DNA of 46,716 nucleotides from assembly GCA_018580065.1 (NCBI GenBank), contig GCA_018580065.1_4845.1; one strand, 5' to 3'. The DNA is from a phage. This document shows positions 1,858-4,551 of the stretch, one piece after another (the first letter of the stretch is position 1; each line of letters opens with the position of its first letter). The notes under the pieces are model-generated. The model worked only from the letters and a program-made list of their open reading frames with translations. It searched no databases and was not told the origin of the DNA. The translations under genes were made by a program, and so were the position numbers.

Positions 1858-1886
1858 TTGACAGTGATTATTTTGTGGTGTAGATT
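1858..1886 (+). promoter_or_regulatory. sigma70-like promoter, TTGACA-17nt-TAGATT
   Basis: TTGACA 1858-1863, TAGATT 1881-1886; no protein-coding ORF follows, leads into non-coding region and tRNA. Confidence 0.5.
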
Positions 1887-1894
1887 TATATGCA

Positions 1895-2326
1895 ACAGAG
1901 ATTTGTTCCCTGATTTCATTTAATTACAGCAAGTCCTTTAATTAAATTAGCGGTCGAGAGACGCCGGACGCGTAACCGGCACACAACAGGTGAGAGCATT
2001 TGGTGAATCGGCGATACTGCCCCACAAGCCCGTAGCCATCGATAGAGGTAGACAAGTGCTCTTTCCGTTGTGGTGAATGCGCAGGCTGATGCGCTAACTC
2101 GCGTGGGTTCCGGTGGTTTCACCGGGTAGACAGGGATTAACTGACCTGCCTCCGTAGATGAAAAGGCTAGCGGCCACAAGACACGGGGAATCATCAAGCC
2201 GGAAATCAGCACCGGCCACCACAACACTTAATATCCAGCATTATCGCAATCATATATAGGGGTATGTATGGGTTACGGGGCTGGATATTAAGAAAGCACG
2301 CTGGCAATGCTTAAACCAGCACTTAT
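1895..2326 (+). ncRNA. candidate structured non-coding RNA / long tRNA leader
   Basis: ~430 nt without plausible ORF between promoter and tRNA; several local hairpins (CCGGTG-gttt-CACCGG, GCGC-n8-GCGC, 10-bp inverted repeat AATATCCAGC...GCTGGATATT). Confidence 0.3.
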
Positions 2327-2403
2327 GGACGCGTAGCTTAATTGGTTAAAGCAACCGACTCATAATCGGCTGATTGAAGGTTCAAATCCGTCCGTGTCCA
2401 CCA
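2327..2403 (+). tRNA. tRNA with anticodon CAT (Met elongator-type or Ile2)
   Basis: Hand-folded cloverleaf: 7-bp acceptor stem GGACGCG/CGTGTCC, U8, D-loop with GG, anticodon loop CTCATAA, T-loop TTCAAAT, 3' ACCA; two stem mismatches. Confidence 0.7.
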
Positions 2404-3204: not shown

Positions 3205-3542
3205 GTCACCAGTGCGAAATCAGGTGGCTCAGCGCGATTGAACGTATTGCCATAATTAATCACATTCAGAATCTGATTTGCGCCAGCAACCAGCGGGTCA
3301 GCTTCTGTCACCGTGCCAATCATGATGTAGTCGCCAGTCTTAGCACCAACATACTCAGTCCAGAACGTATTCTTCTGCACAATCTCATTGCCTTTCGCAT
3401 CGGTAGATACATCATCGTTAAAACCATAATCGCACATGATGCTCACTGGCTCATCAAAAGTCGGCTTGCCGTACTTGTCGGTTCCGGTCTTGTGCCAGAT
3501 AGTGCATGGCTGCGTGTAAGAAAACCGAGAGATTGAGGTCAT
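3201..3542 (-). CDS. head-tail joining / head closure protein (by position)
   Basis: 113 aa ORF in connector operon. Confidence 0.35.
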   Translation of the reverse strand: MTSISRFSYTQPCTIWHKTGTDKYGKPTFDEPVSIMCDYGFNDDVSTDAKGNEIVQKNTFWTEYVGAKTGDYIMIGTVTEADPLVAGANQILNVINYGNTFNRAEPPDFALVT

Positions 3543-4150
3543 AAAACATTCCTATATGAACGATTTTTCTTGATGTGCTGGATAGCACCTTTAGACACGC
3601 CAAACTCATCAGCAAGTGATTGTGAGTGCTCTCCATTTGCTAGTCTGGTTCTCACCTCCCTAACCTGATCATCAGTTAATTTAGCGTGTTTTGGAGTCCT
3701 GCCGAACATTGGGTTTTTCTCGCCAATTCTTGATTGCGATATTTTCTTTCTTGTTTCTTCTGTTTTTGGACCCATAGAGCAAGGTGGTGTTTTCCCATAC
3801 CAGCAGTTATTCTTTCCCATCCTGCTTTTGCTCATTTTAGCTTTAGCCACATCTGTTGCCTGAACCCCCAAGCACGTACCAGCTATTTTTGCCACATTAT
3901 ATTGAGGACTTAGCTTGTCTATGTAGAATTGCTCTCTACTAAGCAGGATTGATTCATCGTTAACAATTTCAAGAATTGAAAATCTGAATAATGACTCGCC
4001 ATATTTTGCTCCATCATTATACAACCTGTGTGGGCTGTGCATGCCATTCCTCATTTTGTATCGATGCACAGCAATTCTATTGGTGTAGCTTATTGTTGAA
4101 CCAACATAAATCTCTTTAGTTATTGTATTTTCAATCTGATATACAGCCAT
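3539..4150 (-). CDS. GIY-YIG homing endonuclease (Seg/I-TevI-like)
   Basis: N-terminal VYQIEN...KEIYVGST (GIY...YIG) motif, NUMOD3-like repeats (KMSKSRMGKNN, ISQSRIGEKNPMFG), C-terminal HTH-like; ORF track begins 4168, MAVYQ start at 4150. Confidence 0.75.
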   Translation of the reverse strand: MAVYQIENTITKEIYVGSTISYTNRIAVHRYKMRNGMHSPHRLYNDGAKYGESLFRFSILEIVNDESILLSREQFYIDKLSPQYNVAKIAGTCLGVQATDVAKAKMSKSRMGKNNCWYGKTPPCSMGPKTEETRKKISQSRIGEKNPMFGRTPKHAKLTDDQVREVRTRLANGEHSQSLADEFGVSKGAIQHIKKNRSYRNVL

Positions 4151-4158
4151 CACTCTCT

Positions 4159-4551
4159 TCATTTGCACTTACTCCCACGAACAACCGCAAACCACGGTTT
4201 ACCGCTTCCGTCAGGGTCTTCCACTAAATCGCCAGTGCATCCGGCTGTATCCAGTAGCTTCATCTGATTGTACAGTGCCACCCACGGCTTGCTACCATAC
4301 GCGAATGATTGTGATGCGCCAGAAGGTGCGCTCTGCCTGGTGACGTAGCGCCCTGCGGTATTTGCGCTAATCAGGATGGAAGCCCACAGCATGATCGCAT
4401 TTTGTCGGCATTCATCATTTGGATAGTTCAGTTCAAGGCATTCGCTGATTGATGACACAAGGCACAGAATGCCAGACGCATCTGTCGTGGTGATGGTCAT
4501 CCCGCGCGACGCCATCTGACTGACCAGTTCTTCAGGTGTTGGTGCTGCCAT
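4159..4551 (-). CDS. hypothetical protein, possible head-tail connector component
   Basis: ORF track 142 aa from TTG; ATG at 4551 with GGGAG RBS. Confidence 0.35.
   Translation of the reverse strand: MAAPTPEELVSQMASRGMTITTTDASGILCLVSSISECLELNYPNDECRQNAIMLWASILISANTAGRYVTRQSAPSGASQSFAYGSKPWVALYNQMKLLDTAGCTGDLVEDPDGSGKPWFAVVRGSKCK

Follow-up and report, generated by a model that had tools for sequence, protein, structure and literature searches.

A putative tRNA-derived RNA scaffold with two variable inserts, shared among phages and prophages of Enterobacterales

INTRODUCTION

Phage tRNA islands hold puzzling RNAs, among them rnaC and rnaD of T4 and the GOLLD and ROOL RNAs. To our knowledge the function of T4 rnaC and rnaD (species 1 and 2), the first of which ends in a canonical T arm, has gone without explanation for decades. 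From RNA engineering comes the Ponchon–Dardel tRNA scaffold, in which foreign RNA put in place of the anticodon arm is said to stabilise the cargo RNA in E. coli. GOLLD and ROOL are phage and prophage RNAs that often lie near tRNA islands and form multimeric cages, and GOLLD has a conserved and a variable part, sometimes with tRNAs in its linker (PMC12286853). Here we describe an element at positions 1982–2225 of a phage DNA of 46,716 nucleotides (NCBI GenBank assembly GCA_018580065.1, contig GCA_018580065.1_4845.1; the whole stretch is called the window below), which comes from a Skatevirus-like siphovirus whose closest records are the Salmonella and Escherichia phages Skate, Seszw, 64795_sal3 and ECO95 1-6-1. 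The element is part of a segment of ~430 nt without a credible open reading frame (ORF), which lies downstream of a promoter at 1858–1886 and ends in a tRNA with anticodon CAU. The initial annotation of this segment left a choice between a long processed leader, a small RNA (sRNA) co-transcribed with the tRNA and a degenerate remnant of tRNA genes. Judged by comparison of sequences, 1982–2225 belongs to a widespread and hitherto undescribed family of predicted tRNA-derived structured RNAs, the near-invariant scaffold of which carries two highly variable inserts.

RESULTS

A covarying scaffold at 1982–2225

A sensitive BLAST search of 1895–2326 against GenBank phages gave a mosaic pattern in which even close relatives share parts only. 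A 40-nt block (2055–2094) was 95–100% identical in unrelated phages, namely Klebsiella siphoviruses and podoviruses, an Ackermannviridae phage, the N4-like phage IME11, the lambdoid phage HK633 and phages of Erwinia and Edwardsiella. When the loci were aligned, three conserved blocks appeared with two variable stretches between them; the de-duplicated set holds about 93–94 distinct instances with 90 distinct cores. The structure was derived from 62 distinct cores aligned with both inserts removed (alignment A1), and the element of the window is made up as follows, with helices named P and hairpins named H:

1982–1988, + strand: CA-rich conserved 5′ flank CACAACA (alignment A1)
1989–2000, + strand: 5′ strand of P1, GGTGAGAGCATT (covariation, inverted repeat, fold)
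2001–2054, + strand: insert 1, variable, closed by P1 (block comparison)
2055–2066, + strand: 3′ strand of P1, AGTGCTCTTTCC (covariation, fold)
2067–2075, + strand: 5′ strand of P2, GTTGTGGTG, acceptor-like (covariation, inverted repeat, fold)
2076–2078, + strand: AAT linker, invariant (alignment A1)
2079–2094, + strand: H1, D-like hairpin GCGCA-GGCTGA-TGCGC (covariation, 5/5 pairs in the fold)
2095–2197, + strand: insert 2, variable, 103 nt, rich in hairpins (BLAST, fold)
2198–2216, + strand: H2, T-like hairpin GCCGG-AAATCAGCA-CCGGC (covariation, fold)
2217–2225, + strand: 3′ strand of P2, CACCACAAC (covariation, inverted repeat, fold)

P1 (12 bp, 1989–2000 with 2055–2066) encloses insert 1, and P2 (7–9 bp, 2067–2075 with 2217–2225) encloses H1, insert 2 and H2; only the inner 7 bp of P2 (5′ side 2069–2075) are robust. 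H2 adjoins the 3′ strand of P2 directly, with no linker, and a loop–loop contact of 5 bp joins GCUGA of H1 (2085–2089) to UCAGC of H2 (2206–2210).

Over the 62 cores, 93.2% of the cells hold standard pairs, against 33–54% when the partners are slid by 1–3 columns. Double-sided changes occur at 13 pairs, whereas shuffled alignments gave a mean of 4.6 and none of 500 reached 13. Covariation in related phages had been proposed by the initial annotation as a check on this segment, and compensatory changes were found in all five helices, the loop–loop contact included; for example, GCUGA/UCAGC is replaced by GUCGA/UCGAC, and GUGGUG/CACCAC by GUGAUG/CAUCAC. Double changes affect four of the five pairs in the H1 stem, three of five in the H2 stem and two of five in the loop–loop contact. 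Moreover, G-U pairs outnumber A-C pairs by 99 to 11, and this excess marks the + strand as that of the functional RNA.

An unconstrained fold of the window sequence recovers 11 of the 12 pairs of P1, all nine of P2 and all five of each of H1 and H2. The + strand folds better than its shuffles (z = −4.26, with 0 of 100 shuffles equally good), against z = −2.0 for the − strand. The GC-rich hairpins and the 10-nt inverted repeat (1993–2002/2053–2062) noticed at the outset are indeed present, together with perfect inverted repeats of 13 bp (2227–2239/2280–2292) and 9 bp (2067–2075/2217–2225). As an alternative to P2, the flank CACAACA can pair with GUUGUG of the 5′ strand of P2, and this helix is 93.5% paired; its changes are all one-sided and preserve pairing through wobbles, thus it can be regarded only as a possible alternative conformation.

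A covariance model built from alignment A1 (R1) scores the window at 53.7 bits (E 3e-9), the window being among the sequences from which the model was built. R1 handles long inserts poorly and placed the 3′ end of the window element wrongly at 2131, hence the coordinates used here were taken from block matching and the fold. R1 also finds weaker second copies in tandem. Among these divergent tandem copies, one is reduced to a minimal form with P2 as a bare hairpin, some have canonical D and T arms, and a third type of hairpin occurs as well; from such variants the universal core comprises the flank, P1 and P2.

A cloverleaf with its anticodon arm replaced

The inner 7 bp of P2 and the abutting 5-bp H2 have the layout of the acceptor helix and T stem of a tRNA, and this arrangement is supported by covariation. 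The succession of a 7-bp helix, a linker, a D-like hairpin, an insert and a stacked 5-bp hairpin thus reads as a cloverleaf in which the anticodon arm has been replaced: where a tRNA has an anticodon arm with a 7-nt loop, the window has an insert of 103 nt. The window lacks canonical elbow loops, its loops GGCUGA and AAAUCAGCA pairing instead by Watson–Crick rules. Phage Skate, with flanks identical to those of the window, has a canonical D arm (GCUCAAUGGCGAGC) and T arm (GCAGGUUCGAUUCCUGU) at the positions of H1 and H2, and its version gives a weak Rfam tRNA match of 16.3 bits. Hence the same slot takes either a classical elbow or a Watson–Crick loop–loop substitute.

The link with tRNAs extends to the surroundings. 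N-CCA follows P2 in many other members, and some members begin directly after the CCA of a tRNA or end ~8 nt before the next tRNA. A tRNA lies within 1.5 kb of 23 of the 93 distinct instances, in all 23 on the strand of the element; that of the window begins ~100 nt downstream. The scaffold RNA is most likely tRNA-derived, made together with the tRNA and stable. The suggestion of a degenerate tRNA remnant holds for ancestry, given the acceptor-like helix, the D- and T-like arms and the arms of Skate; it fails for decay, since the scaffold is near-invariant and its pairs are kept by compensation.

Distribution and genomic context

Members of the family were found in 237 phage records of GenBank, which belong to unrelated types, and, by an exact-pattern scan, in at least 120 IMG/VR viral contigs. 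Among 5,426 complete E. coli genomes, 640 (~12%) carry the conserved block, and a scan of one genome per species gave 15 hits, 13 with the full motif, nearly all in Enterobacterales. The full motif was also seen in a 4.2-kb contig of Martelella alba (L131) and in a metagenome-assembled genome of Geobacteraceae (L132), where contamination or mis-binning by an enterobacterial phage is probable.

In lambdoid prophages the block lies between the Q antiterminator gene and the holin gene, and about 30 of 94 members lie after Q and before holin, lysozyme and Rz genes. The element was not found in Stx2 prophage Sp5 of Sakai, which has tRNAs after Q. On a 114-kb E. coli plasmid (L003, a phage-plasmid) the block lies within a tRNA array, where it separates tRNA-Thr from tRNA-Ser. 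A terminator-like site follows within 220 nt in 52 of 93 members, and across the loci no protein family co-occurs with the element, so that no dedicated partner protein was found. In phages IME11 (L145, 482–2568) and UPM 2146 (L146, 407–3041), ORF-free stretches of 2–2.6 kb hold the element together with several T-arm-like pieces that are not called as tRNAs and a longer upstream module common to lambdoid prophages; these stretches appear to be large non-coding RNA islands. Other RNAs were met near members in a few loci: Sib antitoxin RNA upstream on the same strand in two of them (L013, 1709–1862; L045, 2612–2760), int-alpA RNA ~50 nt downstream of a member (L022, 264–330), and isrK and C4 elsewhere in locus L028 (285–488).

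The inserts

Each insert occurs in 74 distinct versions, which fall into 96 clusters and are mixed in different combinations. The nearest relative of insert 1 of the window, 85% identical, lies in the tRNA array of the phage-plasmid L003, and insert 2 is nearly identical in a few phages such as Bas79, Bas80 and HC8A. Several versions resemble known RNAs. Canonical T arms are present in some versions of insert 1, and one insert 2 contains a nested tRNA-like unit. An insert-2 cassette shared by L026, L033, L061, L064, L086 and L113 (and L002) looks like helix 11 of 16S rRNA (nt 254–282) in sense orientation and differs from E. coli 16S rRNA by compensatory differences; when the inserts were compared with the E. 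coli rrnB operon, only this cassette and one T arm matched. A core like that of a type I hammerhead (CUGAUGAG..CGAAAC..GUC) is nested in insert 1 of L020 and L098; the match at L098 2138–2184 is full-length with all core bases but, at 24.7 bits (E 8e-4), stays under the Rfam gathering score of 34. By the Rfam search, the type I hammerhead core (CUGANGA...GAAA...UH, three stems) is absent from the window.

A predicted transcription unit with a tRNA

Around the element, the segment contains the following features:

1858–1886, + strand: sigma-70-type promoter, TTGACA (1858–1863), 17-nt spacer, TAGATT (1881–1886) (consensus scan)
1897–1937, + strand: AT-rich leader hairpin, in the Skate-like lineage only (minimum-energy fold)
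1963–1980, + strand: hairpin GCCGG-ACGCGTAA-CCGGC just 5′ of the element (5/5 pairs in the minimum-energy fold)
2227–2292, + strand: lineage-specific hairpin, stem of 13 perfect bp, loop of 40 nt (inverted repeat and fold)
2293–2326, + strand: lineage-specific spacer before the tRNA (sequence comparison)
2327–2403, + strand: tRNA, anticodon CAU (ARAGORN; Rfam tRNA, 63.4 bits)
2409–2437, + strand: intrinsic terminator (hairpin 2409–2429 and T-rich tail)

The promoter that the initial annotation had pointed out is present on the + strand, agrees with the consensus at 10 of 12 positions and is identical in six related phages (L001, L002, L035, L072, L112 and L118); transcription would start at about 1893–1895. 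Immediately downstream of the −10 hexamer the relatives cease to resemble the window, which together with the identical promoter indicates that in Skate-like phages the transcribed cassette has been exchanged as a unit. In ECO95 1-6-1 (L002, 1555–2320) an insertion of 765 bp with an ORF of 221 aa lies immediately upstream of the −35 of the intact promoter.

The stem of the leader hairpin, read by eye, is GAUUUG/CAAGUC in the window and GAUUGG/CCAAUC in L118 and L002. The hairpin at 1963–1980 is a recurrent module (GGTCGAnAGACGCCGGA..CGTAACCGGC) that also stands beside members in L006, L081 and L146. That at 2227–2292 is confined to Skate-like phages, with 95–99% identity in 140 records.

A covariance-model search over the segment likewise had been suggested; the predicted tRNA proved real (2327–2403, found by both ARAGORN and Rfam), and nothing was matched in 1982–2225. 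Rfam gave nothing that overlaps the element at either threshold in the window, nor in 48 related loci. The tRNA is probably tRNA-Ile2 (lysidine-modified, reading AUA) and not tRNA-Met: its ortholog in Skate has anticodon AAT, and ATA makes up 17.5% of the Ile codons in ORFs of the window (12 per 1000 codons). Database annotations of this tRNA in relatives switch between Met and Ile. The terminator expected after the tRNA was also found, as a hairpin at 2409–2429 followed by a T-rich tail. This hairpin is flanked by an A-run on its 5′ side and a T-run on its 3′ side, thus it may work in both directions.

Flanking genes and the opposite strand

The segment had been described as an interruption of structural genes on the opposite strand, and it lies between two such genes:

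1090–1806, − strand: major tail protein (phrog_853, E 8e-86)
2432–2806, − strand: tail terminator (PF23842, E 1e-41)

To read on toward the major-tail gene, late transcription of the tail-terminator gene would have to traverse the terminator hairpin at 2409–2429 together with ~600 nt of antisense RNA. By Pfam, a free-standing homing-endonuclease gene with GIY-YIG and NUMOD3 domains lies inside the tail/neck block (3539–4168, − strand), ~1.1–1.3 kb from the RNA cassette.

The sole long ORF in the segment is an antisense frame of 103 aa (1916–2227). That it is not a credible gene agrees with our results, as it has no Pfam or PHROG match and spans blocks that are exchanged among relatives. Three small coding sequences annotated as ‘hypothetical protein’ in Skate (L001, 2471–2985) run antisense to the RNA cassette and are probably not genuine.

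DISCUSSION

A tRNA-shaped body that may display exchangeable RNA domains

The best overall explanation, to which we give about an even chance as a whole, is that the element represents an undescribed family of tRNA-derived structured RNAs of Enterobacterales phages and prophages, made together with a tRNA and displaying inserts. One primary transcript of ~540 nt would run from the promoter at 1858–1886 through the tRNA to the terminator, and nucleases of the host that process tRNAs would separate the RNA from the tRNA, with RNase P cutting at the 5′ end of the tRNA and cleavage in the spacer followed by trimming. Promoter, terminator and a spacing like that of tRNAs suggest such co-transcription and processing, which we think rather probable. 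Among the options of the initial annotation, an sRNA co-transcribed with the tRNA fits best, as a conserved covarying RNA lies on the strand of the tRNA between a conserved promoter and a terminator.

In the folded RNA, H2 would stack on P2 and the H1/H2 loop contact would take the place of the elbow between the D loop and T loop of a tRNA. The compact, presumably nuclease-resistant tRNA-like body could then present two exchangeable RNA domains, which might act in trans on the host during infection, for example as a decoy for host factors that bind or cut RNA. This trans-acting, host-directed role is tentative and, on our estimate, does not reach an even chance by some distance; it is suggested by the hypervariable inserts, the location in accessory hot spots and the analogy with GOLLD, ROOL, T4 rnaC/rnaD and engineered tRNA scaffolds. 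Still more speculative is a joint reading in which the family would be a class of mobile phage RNA, a tRNA-shaped display scaffold exchanged among many phage families, with two insert sites that carry ribozymes, mimics of rRNA and tRNA and other folds against host defences or to seize host RNA machinery. If true, it would be an RNA counterpart of hypervariable anti-defence gene islands.

Several observations weigh against this explanation. Because the loci were gathered by a pattern inside P1 and P2, the AAT linker included, the columns that it covers had to be invariant; the pattern did not extend to H1, H2 or the loop–loop contact. The shuffle control takes no account of relatedness among the sequences, and with a mean identity of 87% in the scaffold the signal could partly reflect recent horizontal spread and not long-term selection. 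All tRNA detectors used (ARAGORN, and Rfam up to E 10) missed 1982–2225, and in the window P2 is followed by ACACU with no 3′ CCA. In a minimal copy (L005, 1657–1796) P2 is a bare hairpin, so that the D-like and T-like arms are not universal. The scan expects ~1.2 promoter sites of this quality in the stretch by chance, hence the promoter match, which by itself stands at chance level, proves little alone. Insert 2 of the window has no relative at the level of BLAST among the ~140 fetched loci, and no insert was linked to any target.

Alternative explanations

A selfish or neutral mobile sequence derived from tRNA, in which the blocks are leftovers of recombination and the inserts are junk, is the alternative that survives best, and we consider it unlikely. 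It would account for the mosaic inserts with their look-alikes of tRNA arms, 16S rRNA and a ribozyme, for truncated copies (as in L139) and for the want of an evident protein partner. However, such a sequence would hardly keep five helices by compensation, a long-range loop–loop contact among them, and the excess of G-U over A-C pairs indicates that selection has acted on the RNA of a single strand; moreover, the element is retained behind a conserved promoter in compact lytic phage genomes.

The element could instead be a leader acting in cis for the tRNA, as an aid to folding or processing, as protection of the 5′ end or through antitermination like that of boxA in rrn operons. It shares strand, promoter and terminator with the tRNA, other members lie directly beside tRNAs, and the 3′ strand of P1 holds UGCUCUUU, the boxA core known from rrn leaders, followed by a GU-rich stretch. 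The plain processed leader considered at first is nevertheless improbable, since a tRNA within 1.5 kb is wanting in 70 of 93 members, 52 of 93 have a terminator-like site within 220 nt downstream, and ~30 precede phage lysis genes instead. An antitermination signal of the boxA type (GCUCUUUA-type, single-stranded) was rejected in particular: UGCUCUUU is paired in P1 and is not kept in divergent copies, where the P1 sequence is altered with compensation, hence the resemblance was dismissed.

The H1 and H2 loops might also pair between molecules, giving dimers or larger particles as in ROOL and GOLLD. Covariation of the loops fits pairing within or between molecules alike, and the cages formed by those RNAs near tRNA islands (PMC12286853) offer a precedent. 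In Skate, however, this place is taken by canonical D and T loops, and such loops contact each other intramolecularly; in addition, no Rfam match to ROOL or GOLLD was obtained; we thus hold the idea to be quite improbable.

There is little to be said for the conserved blocks acting as DNA, namely as recombination or homing boundaries for the exchange of cassettes. They do flank swapped cassettes, similarity breaks sharply at their edges and at the −10, and the GIY-YIG endonuclease gene is close by; but DNA boundaries would not need compensatory changes in helices 100–150 nt apart, would not give a strand-specific excess of G-U pairs, and no endonuclease gene co-occurs with the element across loci. 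Finally, protein coding by the antisense 103-aa ORF or by small ORFs such as the three that annotators called on that strand in Skate is hardly credible and was rejected, because the frame is without a match in Pfam or PHROG and close relatives, which keep the RNA helices, have its interior completely replaced.

Significance

The tRNA-derived RNA family occurs in tractable phages of E. coli, Salmonella and Klebsiella and combines a simple, testable fold with a naturally varying cargo. The role of RNAs of tRNA islands thus becomes directly testable. Furthermore, hundreds of ‘hypothetical protein’ calls over such regions are probably spurious.

Comparison with known RNAs

No description of the family was found in the literature searched by sequence and topic, and it may be present, unnamed, among the 10,006 viral RNA candidates of PMC10690425. 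GOLLD and ROOL are like it in their carriage by phages and prophages, proximity to tRNAs, lack of a partner protein and lack of an assigned function, and GOLLD also in having a conserved part plus a variable part. The present family differs in being smaller (~245 nt here), in occurring in Enterobacterales phages and in its tRNA-shaped core, and the Rfam models of GOLLD and ROOL match neither the window nor 48 other element loci. The T4 RNAs rnaC and rnaD are likewise stable non-tRNA RNAs encoded in a phage tRNA cluster on the strand of the tRNAs; unlike the element, they lack a P1/P2 scaffold as well as variable inserts, and a relation was rejected because R1 finds nothing in the T4 tRNA region (L126, E up to 1).

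In lambdoid prophages, the Hfq-dependent sRNAs Pas, AgvB, AsxR and STnc100 are encoded at the same hot spot between Q and the holin gene. Identity with sRNAs of the Pas type was rejected, as there is no Rfam match, R1 is blank in PP2 of E2348/69 (which holds PasA and PasD2) and the published Pas fragments differ; for AgvB there was no Rfam match in the window or in 48 loci. The strands of P2 bear a likeness to the GU-rich seed of GcvB and to its CA-rich targets; mimicry of that seed or of those targets, in the manner of AgvB, was set aside given the lack of an Rfam AgvB match in the window and the 48 loci.

The closest likeness in shape is offered by the tRNA-like domain of tmRNA, YrlA, the tRNA-like ends of plant viruses and the Ponchon–Dardel scaffold, which share with the element an acceptor-like helix on a T-like arm and an elbow contact. 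In the window, by contrast, the elbow is a Watson–Crick loop–loop helix and not a T-loop/D-loop contact, an extra 12-bp helix and a second insert are added, and CCA is absent after P2. With foreign RNA in the position of an anticodon arm, the phage family suggests a natural precedent for the tRNA scaffold of RNA engineers.

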